A stretch of 64,000 nt of DNA, taken from Naegleria gruberi. Lineage: Eukaryota. The translations under genes were made by a program, and so were the position numbers. Below the pieces are notes generated by a model. It saw nothing but the letters and a program-made list of their open reading frames with translations. It searched no databases and was not told the origin of the DNA. Positions 49,238 through 63,273 of this stretch are shown here, in pieces; position 1 is the stretch's first letter, and the number at the start of each line of letters is the position of its first letter. The stretch lies in the NCBI GenBank assembly GCA_000004985.1, contig GG738907.1. One strand, given 5' to 3'.

Positions 49238-50592
49238 GTTGTATTTATAATGGTAATAACTGAAAAAAGATGGTTGTGTGTGTTTTCTTTTTGTTTTGAA
49301 TTTTAATGTGGGGACTGGTGATTTTGATGCTGTTGTTGCTGGATGCAATTTCAGTGACTCACAGATGGGTGTGTTGGTTGAGATGTTGCGATGGTTTTAG
49401 AAACAGTTAACAAACAAGGCAATTAGATGGGATCATGAAACTTTTTGAGCTATGGGTCTTCTCATGGCCAGATGGAAGATAAGTTCAATGGGACTTGAGT
49501 AACTTTACCTTCCTAACCGAGTTCTTGGATTCTTGGCTAATGAAAAGCTGGTATCTTGGACTATTAGAAATGTTCAACCAGGTTTGTGCTCAAAAGTCAA
49601 CAAAGCTAATTGGAAGTAAACTATTCGTTTCGAATAATCTGTATTATTTATTTTTGAGTCTTTTCTCAAGATCTTCTGCATCAGATGACATTACAGCATG
49701 CCAAGCAAATTTCAATAAATCCTTTCCATAATTCACAACAATATAATAAATGAGGAGAAGTTTCAAAATTAGTAAAATTGCAAAACGCAGGGCTGAAGAA
49801 AAGATTTCCTCCATCAATCCAGAGATAATTTCACGAATGTTTCCGATAAATGACAATTTTTCTTCTTTTTCTTCTTTTTCTTTAGGAATTTCTTTCTCTT
49901 GATCTGCTGGAATTTTCTTTTTGAAAAATTGGCGGGAAATTACATTATTTAATTGAAAATTATTTGTAGATTTAATTAATTGACCATGTGATGATGGCGA
50001 TGATAGGGGAAGCACTGATTTTGTAAATTTGCAATTCCACAACGGTTTTGTGTTAATGGAGGTAATAACTCGTTTCAACATTTTTTTTCTGAGCGGGAAT
50101 GAAATTTCAGCCAACTGGAAGGTTGCCACATAAAGGTCAATGGAGGATCTTGTTAAGTGTGAGAACACAAGACATAAAAAGAACAAAAAATGATATTGAT
50201 TTGTAGAAATGATGAGTTTAAGAGAGGATGTTTAGAAAGTTGAGAATTCCCAACTCTATTTGATATTGATTCAATCCCTTCAAATCAAATTCTTGGTATT
50301 TTGTAAAGTACAGAGAATCAAGACGCCATTTCGCTCGATTTATCTCTTAAATTACTGGTCATCTTTTAAAAATCACAAATTGGTTTATTTCAGATTTCAA
50401 TAATTAAATACAACTTTCACTCCATTTCATTGTATTATGAATTGTATATTTTGAATAGTGTTTCTTCAAAGTATTGTTGTTATTATTTTGGCGGGTTGTA
50501 GTTTTCAAAAATACACCATGTGTCACTTGACATTTAGAAAATTCCTTAAATACTGAACTGTTTTCGAGAAATGATTGAATCAAAACAAAAAA

Positions 50593-52473
50593 ATGAATCA
50601 AAACAATAGATTCCTAGTGTTTGCGCTTCTAGGTCTTACTTGCTTGATTAGCTTCATTCTTACTAGCTCTGTAGTTGAAGGTAGAAGAGCTGCAGTTGTG
50701 CGTAAAGTTGCAGCTGTCAAGAAGCAATTGACCTACAAGAAATGTGAATCTGTTGGTGACCCTCATTATCTTTCTTTCACTGGTCAACGTTTCGATCACA
50801 TGGGATTAGGTGATTATGTTCTTGCTCAATCATCTGACAATCAATTCACAGTCCATGTTAGAACTAGTAAGTGGGGAGGTGCTGCAGCTGTCAATTCCAA
50901 TGTTGCTGTCAGATTAGGTAAAGGCGAGGATGATACTTTCGAATATGATGTCGAACAAGATGTTTTTTACCTTTCTGGTGTTAAGGCAAGTTTGGGTGTC
51001 AATCAAAAGGTTTCTCTTGGAACTGGTGATGTTCAAAGAATCAACACAAACACTGCTGTAGTTTCTGGCTCAAATGGTATCAAGATGACCATGTCTTGGT
51101 ATCGTCATGCTGCTTGGAAGCAACAATTGGGTTCTGTTGGTTATATTTCAGTTGTCATTGATGCTCCAAGTGATATTACTTTCAATAAGGGTATGTGTCT
51201 TGGTGCTTCCGAAGCTTCTCAACAAGCCATTGATATTCTCCACAACCATGTCCAAAGAAGAATTGCTAGAAAGGCTGAACTCAAGAAGGCTACTCCAAAG
51301 AGATCTAGATCTGCTAGAAAGGTCTGTAAGAAGGCTGGTTTGAATAAGAAGCAAAATCCATTCGCTTGGAAGTCTTGTGTCAAGGATGCTATTCAATCTG
51401 GATCCAAGATTGGTTTGAAGATTGGTCAAAACATCAAGAAGGTCAAAGTTGCTGAAAAGAAGGTTTTGAAGAAGGAAATCAAGAAGAAGGCTAAGAAGAT
51501 TGTTCGTAAGGAAAAGAAGGCTATTGAAAAGGCAAAGAAGGAAGCTGACTTGTTGAAGAAGAAGGCCGATCAAGCTCAAAAGAAGGCAACTCAAAAGAGA
51601 GCCAAGTGTGCTAAACGTGCTTCAAGAAAGGCCAGACGTGCTGCTAGAAGAGCAAGACGTGCTGCCAAAAGACTTGCCAAGAAGAAGCAAATTCTCAAAA
51701 AGGTCAAGAAAACCATTAAGAGATCTGTTCGTACCAAGATTACTATTGTCAAGAACTGGAAGAAAATCATCAAGAAGGTTTTGAATGATAGAAAGAAGGC
51801 CCTCAGAGCTGCTAAGAAGGCAAGACAAGCTGCTAAGAAAGCTATTAAAGAAGCTTCAAGAAAGGCCAGAAAAATTGCTGAAGAAAAGAAGAGACAAGCT
51901 GAAGAATTGGCCAGAAAGCTCCAAAGAGATGCTGAAGCTGCTGCTAAGAAATTGAGAGATGCTGTTGAAGCTGCTGCTAGAAAGGCAAGAGAAGCTGCTG
52001 AAAGAGCTAGACAACAAGCTGAAAATGCTAAATTGGAAGCAACTCGTCGTGCTAGAGTAAAAGCTGCAAGATTGGCCAAGTTAGCTAGAGAAGCTGCTGA
52101 AAGAGCTGCCAAGCAACAAAGAGCTATCCTTGAACAAATCCAAAAGCTTGCTAAATTGGCTGCTATCAAAAAGGCTCAACAAGAAGCTGAAGCAAAGAAG
52201 AGAGCTGCTGAAGCATTGAGACTTGTTGAAGAAGCCAAGAGAAAGGCTGCTGAAGCTCTTGAACGTGCTAAGGCTGAAGCAACCAGAAGAGCCATTGAAA
52301 TTGCTGACAGATTAAGAAAGGCTGCTGAAAAGGCTGCTGAAGAAGCTGCTAAAAGAGTCAAGATGGTTGAAGAATTGAAGAAGAAAGCCCTTAAGGATGT
52401 TGAAAAGCAAGCTAGAAAGCTCCTTAATGGTGGTGTTTCCAAGGGAAAGACTGTATGTTTCAGACTTCCTTAA
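50593..52473 (+). CDS. Secreted VWD (von Willebrand type D) domain protein with a ~400-aa K/A/R/E-rich highly basic helical C-terminal region
   Basis: ATG at 50593, followed by a signal peptide. The VWD start CESVGDPHYLSFTGQRFDHMGLGDYVLAQ runs to ...KGMCLGASE. After that comes extreme low-complexity sequence, KKAKKIVRKEKKAIEKAKKEADLLKKKADQAQKKATQKRAKCAKRASRKARRAARRARRAAKR... Confidence 0.55.
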   Translation: MNQNNRFLVFALLGLTCLISFILTSSVVEGRRAAVVRKVAAVKKQLTYKKCESVGDPHYLSFTGQRFDHMGLGDYVLAQSSDNQFTVHVRTSKWGGAAAVNSNVAVRLGKGEDDTFEYDVEQDVFYLSGVKASLGVNQKVSLGTGDVQRINTNTAVVSGSNGIKMTMSWYRHAAWKQQLGSVGYISVVIDAPSDITFNKGMCLGASEASQQAIDILHNHVQRRIARKAELKKATPKRSRSARKVCKKAGLNKKQNPFAWKSCVKDAIQSGSKIGLKIGQNIKKVKVAEKKVLKKEIKKKAKKIVRKEKKAIEKAKKEADLLKKKADQAQKKATQKRAKCAKRASRKARRAARRARRAAKRLAKKKQILKKVKKTIKRSVRTKITIVKNWKKIIKKVLNDRKKALRAAKKARQAAKKAIKEASRKARKIAEEKKRQAEELARKLQRDAEAAAKKLRDAVEAAARKAREAAERARQQAENAKLEATRRARVKAARLAKLAREAAERAAKQQRAILEQIQKLAKLAAIKKAQQEAEAKKRAAEALRLVEEAKRKAAEALERAKAEATRRAIEIADRLRKAAEKAAEEAAKRVKMVEELKKKALKDVEKQARKLLNGGVSKGKTVCFRLP

Positions 52474-52858: not shown

Positions 52859-54378
52859 ATGTCTTTGAATATCAATAGTCATTCAGGATCAAGAAATCAC
52901 TCGCGTAATCCCTCACCAATGGTGCCACCAACTTCGATATTGAAGAAGGCTGTGATTCCTCCGAATAATTCGGCACAGAATAGTGTCACAATTAATATGT
53001 CAAAGAATGAAACAAAGAGTACAAGTTTTAAATGTTGTTGGTGCATGGATATTTTGAAAGAACCTATTCAATTATCGAGCACGTGTTCTCATTATGGATG
53101 TGCCAGATGTATCAATCTGTTATTGAATTTTGAAAAGTTGAAACGTTGTTGTGATAAATAGTTGAGAATAGGAAACCTTATGAGATACCATGTCCTTGTT
53201 GTCCCAATAGATTGTCATTGTTGTATGATAAGGTACATTCAGATCCTTCGGTATTTGAGCAGAACCAGGAGGGCTATTATTCTACATTTAACAGTGCTCG
53301 ATCAGATGGATTTGGCGGTGAAAAGATTAATCCTTACCTATTTACTCTTATTGATGAAGAGTTTAAATCACTCGCAGATGAGTATGGTAATACAGAATTG
53401 GAAGGTAGAATGTGTGCCAATTGCGAGACTACTCTAGCTACTTGCCAATGTGAAACATGTAAATTTATTCTTTGTGGTGAGTGTTTTGCCTCCATTCATG
53501 ACCAAAAGTTATTGAGCTCACACAAAAAGGCTGATCTAAGGCCTGGAAATTATATTCCTATTAATGAAAAATGTATGAAACATGGAAAGGATTTGGATTT
53601 ATTTTGTATGAACGATAATGAGAAAGTTTGCAGTTTATGTGCCATATCTGAAACTCACAAAAATCATCAGTGTATTCCTGTAAACGAGCATATTTCACAC
53701 TTACACGATGATTTGAGGGTTCAAGCTGAACATCTATTTGCAGATGATGATTCAGCCATTCATAATGAAATTAGTAATATTACCAGTTTTTTACAACATG
53801 CAAATGATTACTATGTACAGTCTAAGAATTTTATTGAGGAAAACTTTGGAAAAATTGAAGCAGCACTAAAAAAGAGAAAGGAAGGCTTGTTGAACACAGC
53901 TTTAAAAACTTACAAAAATCCCAACATGGAAGAAAAGGTTAAATTGCTGAAAACATTCTCCTTCTCTGGTTGGAGAGATTCTATTGCACGATTTTCACGA
54001 AAGCTCAATGAAGAAGACAAGATTAATCAAACATCTAAACGATTGGAATTCATTGAAAATCATCTCACCATTGATCACATGTTGAACTCGGGAGATATCA
54101 TACCTGGTAATAATTTGGAATCTAGTCAAGAAGATAATGCTTATTCCAGATCTCAAACACCAATGTTGGAGGATGGTATTGTTTCAGATATTATCAATAT
54201 GATTGAAATGATTACGATATCAAAAGATGAACATGCTCAAAATCAAGAAAATATCAAACATGATAAGAAATTCAAATCAATAATCGGAGACATGATGCAC
54301 CAAAATGAAAATTCAATACGAAAGTCCATTTCCATCACTTGTTTGAGCTCTAAAAAACGATTAGGATCTACGCAATAA
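52859..54378 (+). CDS. TRIM-like protein: RING finger, two B-box zinc fingers, coiled coil. The frame changes near 53150-53175 (intron or frameshift unresolved)
   Basis: ATG at 52859. RING CCWCMDILKEPIQLSSTCSHYGCARCI ... (next frame) PCPCCPNRL. B-box1 CANCETTLATCQCETCKFILCGECFASIHDQKLLSSH. B-box2 CMKHGKDLDLFCMNDNEKVCSLCAISETHKNH (CHC3H2). These are followed by coiled-coil segments. Confidence 0.5.
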
Positions 54379-55196: not shown

Positions 55197-55791
55197 TTTT
55201 TTTAATTGTTAGTTGTTTGATTTGTAACATCAGATGATTGCTTTATTGCTTTTCATAAGATGATTGCAATCATGTTATCTTCCTGATGAAGATCAGCTGG
55301 CTGCCTCCAACAGACAAAAATTCAACTCATTGGACAACGATGATGATCATAAAAGTTTAATGTGGCTTGTTTTGTGTGGCGTTTAATGTCCTATCGGAAT
55401 GAATCCATTTGGTAGACAATTATTTTCGTTATAGTAATCAGGAATGATGGTTCCTTTCTCTTTACAAAGTTGCTGTTGTTAGCAAAGAAATAGGATTGTT
55501 CAATTCATTGTTTGGAAATTTCCAAGTTGTATTATTAAACGTTTTTGTTCATGTAATTAGCGCCATATTGACCGTTACATATTTTTTAAATATTCAAATT
55601 TTTTTAAAAAAACAATTTCAAACAAATAGGATGAAAAGGAATAATTGTATTATTGGCAATTTTGGCGGATGATAATAGTGCATACCCGTGATACTTTTCA
55701 GGTCCATACAACAAGTGGTGCAAAATTGGTTTAGATAGTGAATAAGTGGTAAAGTAATGGCAAAAAATTGGTGGAATTTTCAGAAAACAAA

Positions 55792-58700
55792 ATGTTCAAA
55801 GGCTCATACTACGAGAAGGTTCTTGATGAAGAGGAGAGTTTCAAACCAACAACAACACCATCATCACCATCAGAACAACATGAAGATGTAGATAGTACTT
55901 CTTCGGAGGAAAATAATATACTTCCACCAATGATATCATCTCCAATGGAAAAGAAGGAAAATATAACGGTTGATCGAATGGAAACAAAGGCTTGTTCGAA
56001 GGCTTGTTGTTCTTCATCATCATCATCGAAGGCTGGTTGCTCAGAGGAAGAAGAACAACACGAACATTCGGCAGTTAATAGTACTCACAAACATAGTAAA
56101 AGAGGAACGAAATCAAAGTTGATGTATGGAAAGAAGAAGATCAAAATTAGTCAACTGCAACATTTGACAAAACAACATGATGAACATCATCACGAAGAAG
56201 AAACGACGTCAGAAACAACAAACATTTGCGAGAAGTCAAGCTCTTCTAATTGTTGTTCTTATGGTTCTTGCTCAAAGGAAAAACAAAAAGAACCAAACAA
56301 TGCAATTGTTTCAGATTGCTGTTCTTCAGGTTCCTGTTCCAAGAAAAGCAATGTTCCAGTTGAGAAGAAATCAACATGTACTTCTGGTTGTTGCCAGTCA
56401 GTATCAACTTCCACTGAGAGCAGAACAGAATTGAAATTGGATAATTTACTTCCTAATCACAAGTCTCTGCATTTGACTGTGAGAAATTTGCATTGTGCTG
56501 ATTGTGCCAATATGGTTGAGGGAGTTTTAATTAAGAAGAATGGTATTCTGAATGCCAGAGTGAATAGTATGACAGATTCAGCTCATGTAGTATATGACGA
56601 ATTAATTATACAAGAAACATTAATTGTAAAATCAATTCAAGACCTTGGATTTCCAACTAGTGTCTCTCTATTGAAAAACATTTCAAATTCTGATCAGGAA
56701 ACTCTTACAACCATGTTCGAATTCAAACAGGAGTTACAAACACACAAAGTAGATGAATTAGTTAAGAGCATTGAAAAAGGGGATGGCATTATTCATACGG
56801 CCTATGATACATCGAGTTGTCTCCTCCAAGTGGCTTACAATCCTGATATTACAGGTACAAGAGATATTAAGAAAATGATTGAAACCATCGATTCGAGCCA
56901 TATGTTTACAATTATGAGTGGTAGTAAAGCTAACGAGATTACCGATCAGAACAATAAGAATGAAATCAAAATATGGAGGAGAAACCTTATTGTTTCCTTC
57001 ATTCTTAGTATTCCAGTCATATTTACAGCATTCATCTTTCCAATGATCAAACCAGTTGATGAATTTTTGAAGAAGGAATTCTTACAAGGCCTCAATAGTT
57101 ATATTCTTATTGGATTTATTTTCTCAACACCAATCCAATTTTATTTTGGAAGACCATTGTACATGTCAGCTTACAGAGCTCTACGATATGCAAAAAAGCC
57201 AAACATGGATACACTTGTAATGCTGTCAACTACCACTGCTTATGTTTACTCGTTAGTGAGTACAATAATTGCAATGTTTGTTGAGACTTACAAGGCCGAA
57301 GCATTCTTTGAAACTTCGGCACTCTTGTTGACATTTATCATTTTGGGAAGGTAGGTTTTCTTACTTGTTATTAATTTTATTTATAATTACTATTAAGGTT
57401 TTTGGAAATACTTGCCAAAGGACAAACTTCGAGCATACTTACTTCCATTTTGAAACTCAGATGCACCAAAGCTTTTTTGATATTCAGAGGAAACTATGAA
57501 AGAATAACATGTCAAACCGAACTTGTAAATAATTCACATGCTGTAGAGGAAGAGGAGATTGATACTGATCTTGTTCAAAGAGGCGACATTTTAAAATGCC
57601 TTCCAGGTTCAAAAATTCCAACTGATGGAGTAGTGTTTTATGGCACTACATCGATTGATGAATCAATGATTAGGTAAGTTTTGAACCATAATTTAATTTG
57701 ACATTATTCAACCATAATAGTGGTGAATCTATTCCAGTTAACAAGGATGTTGGAGATTTTGTTTATGGCAGTACAATCAATCAATTTGGAACAATCTATA
57801 TCCGTGTAACAAAAACTAGTTCTGAAAATACTCTTTCTTCAATTGACAAATTAATTCACGAATCTCAAAATGCTAAAGTACCCATTCAAAGAATTGCTGA
57901 TAATGTTAGTGCAGTGTTTGTACCTGTAATTATTGGTATTTCCTTATTGGCTTTTATTATTTGGATCAGTTTGTGTTATGCTGGAGTTTTGGAAACTGAC
58001 CTGCATCCAATCACCTTTGCTTTACAGTTCTCTCTTGCAATTTTGGTAATTAGTTGTCCTTGTGCTATTAGTTTGGCAGCTCCAACAGCTGTGATGGTCG
58101 GTATCGCCAAAGGTGTTGAGTATGGTGTACTATTCAAGAATGGTGCTGTAATTGAGATGTGCCACAAGGTTAACACAGTCATATTTGACAAGACTGGTAC
58201 CTTAACCAATGGAAAACCAGTTGTTACAGACGTGTTGCTTTTTGAGGGAGATGATTTGAAGCAATTCAAAGCAATTATAGGTTCTGCAGAGTTGGGAAGT
58301 GAACACGTTATTGGAAAGGCTATTTCAACACACGTAGAAAAGGAGGGAATAGCTATAGAACAACCTGTTGATTATCAAGCAGTTCCAGGAAAAGGATTAA
58401 AATGTACAGTCTATGGAAAACAAGTGATTGCAGGTAATTGCACTTGGATGAAGGACAATTCAATTGAAATTTCAGAAACACAACAAGAACAAATTTTAAC
58501 TTTGGAGAATCAAGGAAAGACAATTGTTCACGTTGCAATCGATGGTTCTTTACATGGAATTGTTGCCCTCTCTGATACTCTCAAGGTGGAATCCAAACGA
58601 GTTATTGATGAATTGAAGAAGAAGAATGTGGAAATTTGGGTGGTTAGTGGAGACAACCAAGTCACAACTAGATATATCGCCAACCAATTAGGCATTGAGA

Positions 58701-59155
58701 ATGTAATGGCCAATGTCCTTCCAGCCTACAAGAGAGAAAAAGTGCTTGAATTGCAACAAGGTAAAACTTCCAATGGTAAAAAGAGAGTTGTTGCAATGAT
58801 TGGAGATGGTATCAATGATTCACCATCTCTAGCCCAAGCAGATGTTGGTTTTGCAATTGGATGTGGTTCAGATATTGCCTTAGAAACTGCGGATATCATT
58901 TTGGTAAAGAGTGATTTGAGAGATGTGCTTGTGGCTTTGGATTTGTCAAGGACTACTTTCAGAAGAATCAAACTCAACTTTTTATGGGCCTTCCTTTATA
59001 ATGCTGTTGGTATTCCATTATCTGCTGGAGCATTCTATCCAATCCTTGGTATTGCAATTCCACCAGCTATTGCAGGATTATCTGAGATTTTCTCTTCCAT
59101 TCCTGTAATTCTCTTCTCCTTACTTTTGAAATTCTACAAACCAAAGATTTATTAA
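55792..59155 (+). CDS. P1B-type heavy-metal (Cu+-type) transporting ATPase in three exons: join(55792..57350,57398..57673,57721..59155)
   Basis: ATG at 55792. Two 47-nt introns (GTAGGT...ttaag and GTAAGT...ataatag) join in frame to give LGR|FLEILAKGQTS and MIR->TGESIPV. Motifs found: CPC (SCPCAISLAAPTAV), DKTGTLT, GDGINDSPSLAQADVGFAIG, and TGESIPV. The N-terminus has Cys-rich metal-binding-like clusters and an HMA-like fold carrying CADC instead of CxxC. Confidence 0.85.
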
Positions 59156-60831: not shown

Positions 60832-63273
60832 ATGTTACCTCCTCATCTCTTCAAATCTTCTGTTAATATCAAACCTGATCGTTCCAATTTTACATTGGAA
60901 AGGAATTATGATCTGATTCAGGAATCTCTGATGGAAAAACGTGAAATTTTAATTCCTGGCGAGGAAATTGAAATTGATTCACATGTTTATTGTGTTAATT
61001 TGTTTAAAGTAGCAAATTCGGGTGATGAAAATAAAGTAGTGGAAACAGTTGATGAAAAGATGAATTCGGGTGATGGAAAGGAATTGATTCGAAATAAGGA
61101 TCATTTGTTCTTGGTTGACCATTTGTTGCATCAGGAAGAGTGTAAAGAAATATTAAAGAAGGAAGAATCGTTGGGTTTCGAATCAATTACTTCTGAATAT
61201 CCGGTTGAGTATAGAAATAGCAAGAGAATTCTTTACAATGACAAGGAATTGGCTGCCAAGTTATGGAAAAGATTGAAAAAGTACATGATTGATTGTAATT
61301 TTATGAAACCTTATGGTTTAGACAGTGAAGGTTATTGGATTCCAATATCTGTAAACGAATGTATGAGATTGAGCAAGTATGAACCTGGAAATTATTTCAA
61401 ACCTCATACTGATGGTCAATTTGTGAGAAATGATGATGAGAGAAGTATTTACACATTGATCATCTATTTGAATGATGGATTTGTTGGTGGCGAAACTAAA
61501 TTCATGAGAAGAGTTGATCCTCTCGCTGAAAATGAAATGAAATTCAAGAATTTATGTGAAATTAGTCCCAAGATGGGAAGTGCATCTGTGTTTAATCATG
61601 ATTTGTATCATCAGGGATGTCTAGTAACAGAGGGTGTGAAATACATTTTAAGAACTGAAATAATGTTCAAGAGAATTGACTCAGCTGAGCAATTAGTGAC
61701 TAAACAAGATAATGATGAGATCTATAACAAAGTTATGGATCTTTTGCATGAAAGCGACCAACTGGAAAGGAAGGGGGACACTTACCAAGCAACCAAACGT
61801 TATATAAGTGCACAGGAATTATTGATCAAAAGTGGACATTCAACTTCAATGTTAATGAATCCAAAATTTCTTTCTAAAAGGAAAACTCTCAATGCTGAGA
61901 ATTATTCAATGAAGAGCTCAATTTCTCGATTACCAGATGAGATTATCTCACATATTTGCAAATTTTTGAATGACTGGGAAATTTGCAAGCTCATTCTTCC
62001 ACTCGACAGATATTTCAATGATATTGGACGAAACTCACCATTATGGGAATGGATGTATATGAAAAAATGGGGACATTCTATCACTAATTTACTGAAACAA
62101 TTTCACTCAAGAAATATTGAGGAGCTTAGAAATCTCAATTCACAAGACAATACAAGCTCACTTGAAGAAACACCAACTGAGGAGCAGGATTGGTTCCATA
62201 TTTATATCATGAAACGATATTTTGAAAAGGAGTTTGAACCAATTTGTGTGGATTTTGGTCCTGATATGTATTCCTTTACATATTTTGCAACCATTAATGG
62301 AGATATCGAAAGAGTTGTAACTAGACCCATAAAAGGGGCCACCAGACAGTAAGTAGAATATTTGTGAAACTTTCCAAGATCTTTTTGAAAATAGTGCAAC
62401 CATCACTAAATTTTGCAGTTATATCTTACCAGATTATCATAATCAAAACTCTCGATCTCTGGCTGGAGCAGTTAAAATTCATGATTTAAATAATGGTGGC
62501 TATTCGAAATATGTTCAACCATTCGTCAACTTGCTTTACAAAAAATTGAACAAGAGTTGTCAAAGGAATCCGATTATTATCAGTTGTGGATCGAGTGAAT
62601 TTATGAATTTCAATTCTTGGAAAGAAGTATTATTGGATTACATGGTAAGTATTTCACATTAGTTCATCAAATATATTCTGAAATCGTCTAGTTCAAGATT
62701 AAGATCCCAGCTGTTTGCGTGCTCCCAAGATGTTATCTATTAGCAATTTACTTTAATCTACCAACATGTCTAGTTATTGATGTTTTAAGTAATGCAGTTT
62801 ATGTACATGCCATCATTCAAAATGACAAGGATCAAATTAGAACTGTCTATAAACCCATCACATCTAACAGGAACGTGTATCCTATAAGGCCAGCAGAGGA
62901 TAAAAACTCATTCGAGGGGCCAATAATTAATGCCATTGACACCCTCTTGGATCAATTTTCAGATAATGCCAATCTGAAATCTCATTTAATGGAAAATATT
63001 ATACTTTCTGGAATTATTGTTGAAAATTCTTACGAATTTAATTTCAGAAATCTTGGTGAAGAACCAAAATCAAAAAGAAAAGATTTGGAACGTAACGATA
63101 TTCTCGAGGTATTCAACTCTCCAAATTCCAAATATCAAGTCAAATATCAAGCTAGTGGCGAAGAGGCCATTAAGGGAGCTCAACAATTTTCTAAAATTCC
63201 AAACTTTAAGGATTATTGCACTTATTGGTTCGATTGTGAGAAGTTTGTCAAGCAATTCGATGCATTTGAGTAA
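60832..63273 (+). CDS. Composite protein: prolyl-4-hydroxylase-like 2OG-Fe(II) oxygenase domain, F-box-like motif and a divergent truncated actin-fold domain. Model join(60832..62348,62419..62644,62704..63273)
   Basis: ATG at 60832. 2OG oxygenase motifs: PHTDGQF (HxD), IYLNDGFVGGETKF, NHDLYHQGCLVTEGVKYILRTEIMF. F-box-like RLPDEIISHICKFLNDWEICKLI. Introns of 70 and 59 nt (GTAAGT...AG) are in phase. The actin-like blocks are ICVDFGPDMYSF...VVTRPIKG, QRNPIIISC, and EVLLDYMIPAVCVLPRCYLLAIYFNLPTCLVIDVLSNAVYVHAI (compare actin [39 protein letters not shown]). Confidence 0.5.

Follow-up and report, generated by a model that had tools for sequence, protein, structure and literature searches.

A hyper-basic helical tail with apolipoprotein-like periodicity on a predicted self-cleaving VWD protein of Naegleria gruberi

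A 64,000-nucleotide stretch of the Naegleria gruberi genome (contig GG738907.1 of assembly GCA_000004985.1, hereafter the window) encodes, at positions 50593-52473 of the plus strand, a 626-amino acid protein in which a VWD domain and a reduced C8-like hairpin are continued by a long, hyper-basic helical tail. The apolar and charged positions of the tail follow a phase-coherent helical period which groups it with 11/3 helices carrying a straight apolar stripe, and the same geometry recurs in related proteins. Comparison with the relatives points to a distinct, cysteine-poor and strongly cationic subfamily of protist VWD proteins, in which a VWD-C8 head, predicted to be self-cleaving, is combined with an extended polycation; in Naegleria and its close relatives, the latter is a helix several hundred residues long whose geometry is like that of apolipoproteins. 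VWD domains are the units from which animal mucus and the blood-clotting system are built. That Naegleria has them was remarked on by Lang et al. 2016 (PMC4948705) but has never been explained. That remark aside, no description of the architecture or of the family was found in the searchable literature, including articles on the proteome of the Naegleria cyst wall and on amoebal VWD, and neither the accession numbers of the family nor Naegleria together with VWFD could be retrieved from it.

The coding sequence is a single unbroken open reading frame (ORF), complete and intron-free, which runs from an ATG at 50593 to a TAA at 52471-52473. An exhaustive phmmer search with residues 40-250 as query recovered 461 relatives at E <= 0.001, the closest of which are all heterolobosean or environmental. 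They comprise a second N. gruberi protein with two VWD units and a hyper-basic tail (D2VXA1 / NAEGRDRAFT_59485, here P0001), an ENA metagenome protein of 603 aa (P0002, 51% identity), the N. fowleri protein FDP41_012263 (XP_044566319; P0003, 533 aa, 50% identity) and Willaertia magna ABK040_003113 (P0008), with head identities to the window protein of 40-51%. All four share with it the signal peptide, a GDPH-type VWD, a two-Cys C8-like hairpin and a polycationic, helical Ala/Lys/Arg tail. A preliminary description of the stretch had proposed just such a fusion of a signal peptide and a VWD with a very basic helical tract, and had suggested searching for homologs with the same pairing; the fusion is borne out by the uninterrupted ORF, and the homologs exist in N. 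fowleri, in Willaertia magna, on an environmental contig and in N. gruberi itself (P0001). Both strings quoted at the time, CESVGDPHYLSFTGQRFD...GDYVLAQ and KRAKCAKRASRKARRAARRARRAAKRLAKKK, are present in the translation.

The same description had considered that an intron, a stop codon or the assembly artefact of a simple repeat might account for the junction of head and tail. These scenarios are removed by orthologues which were sequenced independently and which are likewise single ORFs or exons, in N. fowleri (locus L002, 8001-9602), in Willaertia magna (L003, 10001-11368) and on an ENA metagenome contig (L001, 1930-3741). The broader explanation of a mis-assembled simple repeat, a pseudogene or a chance joining of genes or exons might appeal to the low-complexity composition and the strong strand asymmetry of the locus, but it is effectively refuted. 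No long tandem repeat was found in the basic tract by Tandem Repeats Finder and direct-repeat analysis: with the former, imperfect units of 12, 21 and 33 nt were repeated no more than 2.1-3.3 times, and the repeat families seen with the latter are 60-80% alike. Moreover, the head-plus-tail architecture recurs in four other independent assemblies or records, the tail contains the conserved Cys339 and finishes with the conserved C-x-R-x-x motif, and head and tail have the same codon bias.

This bias, directed toward GCT, AAG, AGA and GGT, is real; it had previously been described for the basic tract (as GCT/AAG/AGA), yet it is equally strong in the head. GCT has a share of 0.70-0.73, AAG of 0.77-0.83 and GGT of 0.71-0.75 in the two parts of the gene, compared to 0.45, 0.56 and 0.33, respectively, in 28 other ORFs of the window. 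Since the preference for these codons is equal in head and tail, the protein is probably abundant or highly expressed. Three low-complexity ORFs on the minus strand (51148-51594, 51591-52169 and 52176-52442), whose translations are rich in L, S, A and F, are by-products of the GCT/AAG/AGA bias and not genes, in agreement with the earlier view of them as artefactual. A short upstream ORF of 12 codons, out of frame with the gene (50571-50609 on the plus strand, from an ATG at 50571 to a TAG at 50607-50609), extends across the start codon of the gene itself at 50593. Within the window, tblastn with head and tail found the gene itself only, and no paralogue cluster is present.

Residues 1-30 (50593-50682) constitute a predicted signal peptide, with a short basic n-region (MNQNNR), a hydrophobic core of 17-18 residues and a cleavage junction between VEG and RR. 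The junction recurs in P0001, P0002, P0003 and P0008 with the form V-E-[GAS] before the cut and [RK]-R after it. The assignment was made by eye, from the sequence and from the conservation among homologues; on this basis, the protein is expected to be secreted. The following segment, residues 31-54 (50683-50754), is basic and includes Cys51 together with the first strand of the VWD fold, beta-1, which is strand E4-10 of the structural model of the core (residues 48-54).

The identity of the head is supported by profile, alignment and structure prediction. Pfam VWD (PF00094) matched residues 51-174 with an E-value of 1.2e-7 and a score of 32.6 bits (gathering cut-off 22.9), covering positions 1-122 of the 156 in the profile, and no other Pfam family was matched in the protein at E <= 1. 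According to Pfam, the AlphaFold core model and Foldseek, the VWD beta-sandwich covers residues 51-205 (50743-51207) and is bounded by Cys51 and Cys202; it is followed, in residues 206-278 (51208-51426), by a linker (ILHNH..R) and by a reduced C8-like helical hairpin containing Cys245 and Cys262. In the family alignments, the conserved core extends from Cys51 to approximately residue 305, thus including the hairpin and the start of the long helix. Its VWD signature is C-x3-G-D-P-H-Y...G-x-G-D-[YF]...G-[ML]-C, the linker reads [IL]-L-H-x-H..R, and the segment after it C-K-K-A-G-L...N-P-x-A-x-x-x-C..D..I.S-G-x-K-I-G..I-A-K..K-K. The AlphaFold model of residues 45-310, built from an alignment of 32 sequences, reached a pLDDT of 93.2 and a pTM of 0.89, and its helices H191-203 and H212-225 correspond to the C8-like hairpin. 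When it was compared with the PDB by means of Foldseek, the matches were the D assemblies of VWF (D'D3), MUC5AC, MUC2, MUC5B and FCGBP (E 4.6e-10 to 2e-7, probability 1.0, TM(query) 0.47-0.62), aligned over about 270 columns, a length which implies that the match covers the C8 in addition to the VWD. The modelled head is therefore best described as a cysteine-poor VWD followed by a two-Cys remnant of C8, with four Cys in all.

The nearest solved relative by sequence is FCGBP (8rde, the best match of phmmer against the PDB, E 3.4e-28), while the D assemblies of VWF, MUC2, MUC5AC and MUC5B are the nearest by fold. Unlike all of these, the window protein has a single VWD and only four Cys in VWD and C8, a conserved internal Cys being replaced by G-x-G-D-[YF]. 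TIL and E modules were not detected by Pfam after the VWD, no further Cys-rich region follows it, and a complete D assembly is accordingly absent; the 626 residues also contain no PTS domain, no multiple or tandem D assemblies and no C-terminal cystine knot (CK), which separates the protein from gel-forming mucins. Lang et al. (PMC4948705) likewise list Naegleria as possessing VWD only. Furthermore, it is strongly basic and carries a helical tail absent from every one of those proteins.

The GDPH motif (Gly55-Asp56-Pro57-His58, 50755-50766) is invariant in 10 of the 10 close family sequences, is placed by the core model after strand E4-10 (beta-1) and before strand E14-16 (beta-2), as in the GDPH-type domains of FCGBP, the MUC2 C-terminus, MUC5AC and RGM, and lies in a context, CxxxGDPHYxxFxGxxFDxMG, identical to that of FCGBP domains. 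Spontaneous Asp-Pro cleavage in domain D10 of FCGBP depends on both the Asp and the His of the motif, while the effect of a Gln at position +14 is only partial (PMC10880436); FCGBP is reported to leave the cell with every one of its GDPH sites cut (PMC8267560). In the window protein, position +14 is a Met, as it is in the FCGBP domains with FDFMG or YDMMG in the alignment. Given that the Asp and the His are present and that Met +14 is shared with cleaved FCGBP domains, autocleavage between Asp56 and Pro57 is a reasonable prediction. Cys51 and Cys202 presumably close the domain with a disulfide, a pairing supported by their joint loss in the relatives P0022 and P0025, and through it the basic fragment 31-56 would stay tethered to the head after the cut.

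Two other groups of proteins resemble the predicted behaviour of the head. RGM/hemojuvelin and the inter-alpha-inhibitor heavy chains (ITIH) are small proteins with a partial or cryptic VWD and undergo Asp-Pro autoproteolysis at GDPH, as predicted here; the presence of the motif in ITIH is documented (PMC10880436). RGMB is among the fold matches of the core model (E 1e-5), and the relative P0008 has a weak match to Pfam RGM_C. However, the window protein has neither the N-terminal domain nor the GPI signal of RGM, it lacks the VIT and VWA domains of ITIH, and its similarity to both is far weaker by sequence than that to FCGBP.

The tail starts after the hairpin and falls into two halves of different charge. 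Its first half, residues 279-420 (51427-51852), is nearly devoid of acidic residues and hyper-basic, with a net charge of about +10 to +16 per 30 aa (approximately +0.4 per residue), and contains the conserved Cys339 (51607-51609) within a K-x-x-K-C landmark. The second half, residues 421-612 (51853-52428), is rich in A, K, R and E and has a mixed charge, with a net of +2 to +7 per 30 aa; it is predicted as helix with a pLDDT of ~65-73. A C-terminal cap (residues 613-626, 52429-52470, the NGGVSKGKTVCFRLP region) concludes the protein with the motif Cys622-[FIL]-R-[LI]-[PA] at the carboxyl terminus. Over residues 231-626, K accounts for 24%, A for 22%, R for 12% and E for 9%, the net charge is about +99 and the isoelectric point 11.2. 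The tract had been introduced as some 400 residues composed almost entirely of K, A, R and E: its hyper-basic nature is confirmed, but these four residues make up 66% of the tail (K and R together 36%), L, I, V and Q adding another 21%, and its length is about 335 aa (279-612), the conserved head reaching to about residue 305.

Gly and Pro are completely missing from residues 279-612, a run of 334 aa, and the full-length AlphaFold model places helices at H271-334, H337-520 and H527-612. This model was obtained from an alignment of four sequences, has a pLDDT of 58.9 and reproduces the VWD poorly, and was used for the secondary structure of the tail only. Fourier analysis of hydrophobicity revealed a sharp, phase-coherent peak at 3.62 residues in the tail of the window protein, with a power of 265.7 against a shuffle maximum of 98-99 (200-300 shuffles). 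In P0002, P0003 and P0001, the peak of the tail lies at 3.64-3.66 with a power of 210-276, and the shuffle maximum did not exceed 112 across the four proteins. The short tail of P0008 differs, peaking at 3.5 at a level not above its shuffles. Ala positions and Lys/Arg positions each carry the periodicity independently, since none of 300 shuffles reached it, and on a helical wheel a face of 120-160 degrees consists of 60-85% Ala and aliphatic residues, opposite a face which is 55-88% Lys/Arg. The same method, applied to control sequences entered by hand, returned 3.50 for tropomyosin, 3.66 for apoA-I and 3.68 for alpha-synuclein, and no period for the C-terminal domain of histone H1.4, for which 252 of 300 shuffles reached or exceeded the observed power. 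Because the 3.62-3.66 of the tails agrees with the apoA-I and alpha-synuclein controls and differs from tropomyosin and H1, the tail groups with 11/3 helices bearing a straight apolar stripe, and not with heptad coiled coils or H1 tails.

The likeness to apoA-I and to the N-terminus of alpha-synuclein consists in an apolar periodicity (3.66-3.68 there, 3.62-3.66 here) which stays coherent over long helices. It concerns geometry, not homology, and suggests lying along a surface as a possible mode of action. Unlike those proteins, the tail has no Pro-punctuated 22-mers or KTKEGV repeats, is far more cationic and presents an apolar face which is mostly Ala, and it was not matched by Pfam Apolipoprotein, Synuclein or LEA_4. 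A sequence search of the PDB with residues 420-610 returned de novo designed bundles alone, with E-values of 0.07-0.8 that are not significant; designed helical bundles and repeats such as 6xss, 6xr1 and 4uos resemble this segment in their idealised A/E/R/K helix composition, with no evolutionary relation.

The periodicity and the charge pattern also bear on the three structural readings offered for the tract beforehand, namely a histone H1-like tail, a coiled coil or a charged single alpha-helix (SAH), all of which are largely rejected. A heptad coiled coil is at odds with the period of 3.62-3.66: the power at 3.5 over the whole tail is 24.5, which is background level, and the one segment which approaches 3.5, residues 333-420, does not retain it in P0002 or P0003. 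A conserved heptad segment after Cys339 was likewise considered and discarded, as it is seen in the window protein alone. The H1-like reading is contradicted by the absence of Pro and SPKK-type motifs and by a strong periodicity unlike that of the H1 C-terminal domain.

A related possibility is that the protein condenses nucleic acids as H1 or protamines do, either outside the cell, on extracellular DNA (eDNA) of biofilms or in extracellular traps, or in the nucleus if the signal peptide were not working. The K/R/A composition and the charge density, which rises to +47 per 100 aa in the N. fowleri orthologue, would fit this role, as would helices with Lys/Arg on one side, suited to a phosphate backbone. 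It is nonetheless improbable, considering that the periodicity and the motif content separate the tail from H1, that no Pfam nucleic-acid-binding family was matched, that signal peptide and cleavage motif are conserved, and that VWD is an extracellular, disulfide-bonded fold.

As for the SAH, residues 231-420 contain 0.095 opposite-charge pairs (i/i+3 and i/i+4) per residue, the same as shuffled sequences, and residues 420-610 contain 0.41, compared to 0.21 when shuffled and about 1.0 in an idealised ER/K sequence composed for the comparison. The weak network of charge pairs and the coherent apolar stripe speak against a classical ER/K SAH. A wider version of the idea, in which the tail is a rigid spacer, a stable single helix or rod of up to ~50 nm holding the VWD head or the C-terminal Cys at a distance, finds some agreement in the 334 residues free of Gly and Pro, in the helix predicted throughout and in the pair enrichment of residues 420-610, and is very unlikely all the same. 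Residues 231-420, at about +0.4 charge per residue and with no enrichment of salt bridges, would not be helical alone; a SAH needs no conserved apolar stripe and normally has none; and the tails of the orthologues vary in length from ~230 to 335 aa.

The apolar face raises the further question of membrane activity. Naegleria feeds on bacteria, and the protein could be an antimicrobial or membrane-active effector, in which a giant cationic amphipathic helix targets prey bacteria or the membranes of a host, either intact or after cutting at dibasic sites into cecropin-like peptides, with the VWD as carrier or pro-domain. The cationic amphipathic character of the tail, a local hydrophobic moment (muH) of up to 0.98, KLAKLA-type strings and the agreement of the 11/3 periodicity with membrane-surface helices are all in its favour, and in the subgroup formed by P0022, P0025 and P0047 a GDPH cut would free an untethered polycationic segment. 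We regard this as quite unlikely, because the stripe is mostly Ala and the mean Eisenberg hydrophobicity (H) is low, which argues against true membrane lysis: the values for the tail, H -0.49 and muH 0.51, lie under those of most lytic peptides, and its mean hydrophobicity is far below that of the typical ones. In addition, large hydrophobic residues are not significantly periodic in P0002 and P0003, dibasic sites are uninformative at 36% K+R, and discrete repeated peptide units are not visible.

Sequence identity of the tail to its orthologues is ~30%, against ~50% for the head, and charge and periodicity are nonetheless kept, although orthologue tails differ in length and in acid content. 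The alignments thus suggest that charge, helix-compatibility and periodicity, a pattern rather than a sequence, are under selection. The exceptions are the landmarks around Cys339 and at the C-terminus, which the window protein shares with P0002 and P0003. Cys622 and Arg624 are invariant among the window protein, P0002 and P0003/P0151, the last being two near-identical entries. The final five residues (52456-52470) read CFRLP, with CIRIA and CLRIA as their counterparts at the C-termini of P0002 and P0003. A CaaX box can be excluded, given the four residues after the Cys and the secretory nature of the protein. Conversely, P0001 and P0008 end in a two-Cys 'WNP' module (L-x-K-K-L-x-x-K-W-N-P-x-K-x-L...C...(17-22 aa)...C, at ~850-926 and ~395-455, respectively) which the window protein does not have. 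The module is found at the N-terminus in P0047 and P0022, and the subgroup with this arrangement has lost both VWD Cys, so that its polycationic N-terminal region would be released in its entirety by a GDPH cut.

Mature orthologues contain exactly six Cys, of which the third pair, provided by the tail, is conserved. This is one of the observations in support of a different interpretation, a structural polymer of the extracellular matrix (cyst wall, ostiole plug, trail or coat) made of disulfide-linked chains, packed through their Ala stripes and cemented by acidic polysaccharide. VWF and the mucins polymerise through VWD-C8 units; N. fowleri and N. lovaniensis possess paralogues (P0006 and P0007) with no helix and with long S/T/K/P mucin-like regions in its place; the codon bias suggests an abundant product, and an Ala stripe suits tight helix packing. 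On the other hand, TIL, E and CK domains and a PTS region are missing, no stage-specific expression data were found in the literature, and a charge of +99 opposes self-association in the absence of a polyanion partner. The very high charge argues against unaided self-assembly, and a matrix polymer is, on balance, rather unlikely.

On a broader scale, the combination of VWD and polycation, which had been called unexpected, is recurrent. Among the retrieved relatives, a net charge of +8 per 100 aa or more is reached by 29 of the 53 shorter than 1000 aa, all protist VWD proteins, compared to 3 of the 106 long mucin-like ones. The polycation takes different forms: a K/A/R helix in Naegleria and Willaertia, an R/C/H/K tail in P0079, H/R/K sequences in P0054 and P0143, and S/T/K/P regions, while P0022, P0025 and P0047 have P/R-rich N-terminal regions. 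As judged from the sequences, the theme of the family is a Cys-poor, GDPH-type VWD-C8 head with some extended polycation, and the recurrence of the latter points to charge-based binding as a common function. Proteins from JGI metatranscriptomes (P0079, P0054, P0143 and P0046) are distant protist VWD relatives with extreme polycations; in P0079, a signal peptide and a VWD precede an R/C/H/K tail in which HVRRFRKHRK is repeated. The Mantamonas plastica protein P0051 has at least four VWD units and is Arg-rich throughout, with +25.7 net charge per 100 aa. A scan of metagenome contigs with the family profile gave a lone match, L004 (Ga0099803_1251086, 807-1016), which is 36% identical to residues 6-69 of the core and possibly represents an intron-containing relative. 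A phage collection searched with tblastn contained no match.

Taken together, these features are most readily accommodated, in our tentative view, by a secreted adhesin or agglutinin, or a coat protein, whose polycationic helix binds polyanionic surfaces. Polyanion binding had been put forward already in the preliminary description and is still the leading idea. The tail would be one very long helix or a few of them, with a narrow, nearly straight stripe of Ala (together with L, I and V) and with Lys/Arg over the remaining 200-240 degrees. Polylysine-type chains form a helix upon neutralisation of their charge. By analogy with this behaviour, and because of its charge of ~+0.4 per residue, the acid-free first half of the tail would be unfolded alone and become helical once neutralised. 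The secreted tail would then dock its cationic face on bacterial envelopes, on acidic glycans or the glycocalyx, on anionic membranes or on the nucleic acid of biofilms, and so anchor or display the autoprocessed VWD-C8 head. The Ala stripe would allow a shallow interfacial contact or the side-by-side packing of helices, and Cys339 and Cys622 may close the tail into a hairpin or, alternatively, form bridges between molecules.

Several points weigh against this adhesin or coat protein. Its family members are annotated throughout as 'hypothetical' or 'VWFD domain-containing' and nothing more, in line with the earlier statement that the function is uncharacterised. The stripe is formed mainly by the weakly hydrophobic Ala, and at H -0.49 and muH 0.51 genuine membrane insertion is doubtful; it could serve helix-helix packing instead, and a purely electrostatic binding of polyanions needs no stripe. 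Moreover, the full-length AlphaFold model has a low confidence (pLDDT 58.9), and cleavage of the signal peptide, cleavage at GDPH and the disulfides are predictions.

Should the family indeed consist of abundant secreted adhesins, agglutinins or coat proteins, it would bear on the sticking of amoebae to surfaces, to bacteria and to host tissue, N. fowleri having an orthologue, on the roles of VWD before animals, and on the extracellular use of very long, highly charged helices. A bolder and unlikely extension is that Naegleria and its relatives, and more broadly a number of bacterivorous protists, possess a whole undescribed class of secreted, self-cleaving VWD proteins which coat or capture anionic targets, for instance prey bacteria or the surfaces of hosts and biofilms, by means of polycationic helices with apolipoprotein geometry. 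After GDPH cleavage, a reactive Asp has been proposed for MUC2 and FCGBP, and ITIH uses such an Asp for covalent coupling. In a capture protein of this kind, the cleavage might arm the molecule through the reactive Asp or release the polycation. If true, the family would amount to a primitive 'mucus/opsonin' system predating the metazoans, and in Naegleria it would be a candidate for a factor of adhesion or cytolysis.

The genomic surroundings of the gene are those of a eukaryotic, gene-dense region with 34% G+C, and no synteny was found between the window and the loci of the relatives in N. fowleri, Willaertia magna and the ENA contig. Downstream on the plus strand, a weak RING C3HC4 match (52859-53161, E 0.0047, below cut-off) directly precedes an ORF with two B-boxes (53212-54378), and the two are probably a single TRIM-like gene split by an intron of ~50 nt or by a frame change. 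Further along, an ORF for a 2OG-Fe(II) oxygenase (60832-62352, plus strand) also has a sub-threshold match to poxvirus C4/C10 (E 3.2e-5; 23.7 bits, cut-off 25). Between them, a copper-type P-type ATPase extends over two plus-strand ORFs, with HMA, followed by E1-E2 ATPase and HAD, distributed along 55768-57354 and 57698-59155; such a split requires one or more introns and bears out that the window is eukaryotic.

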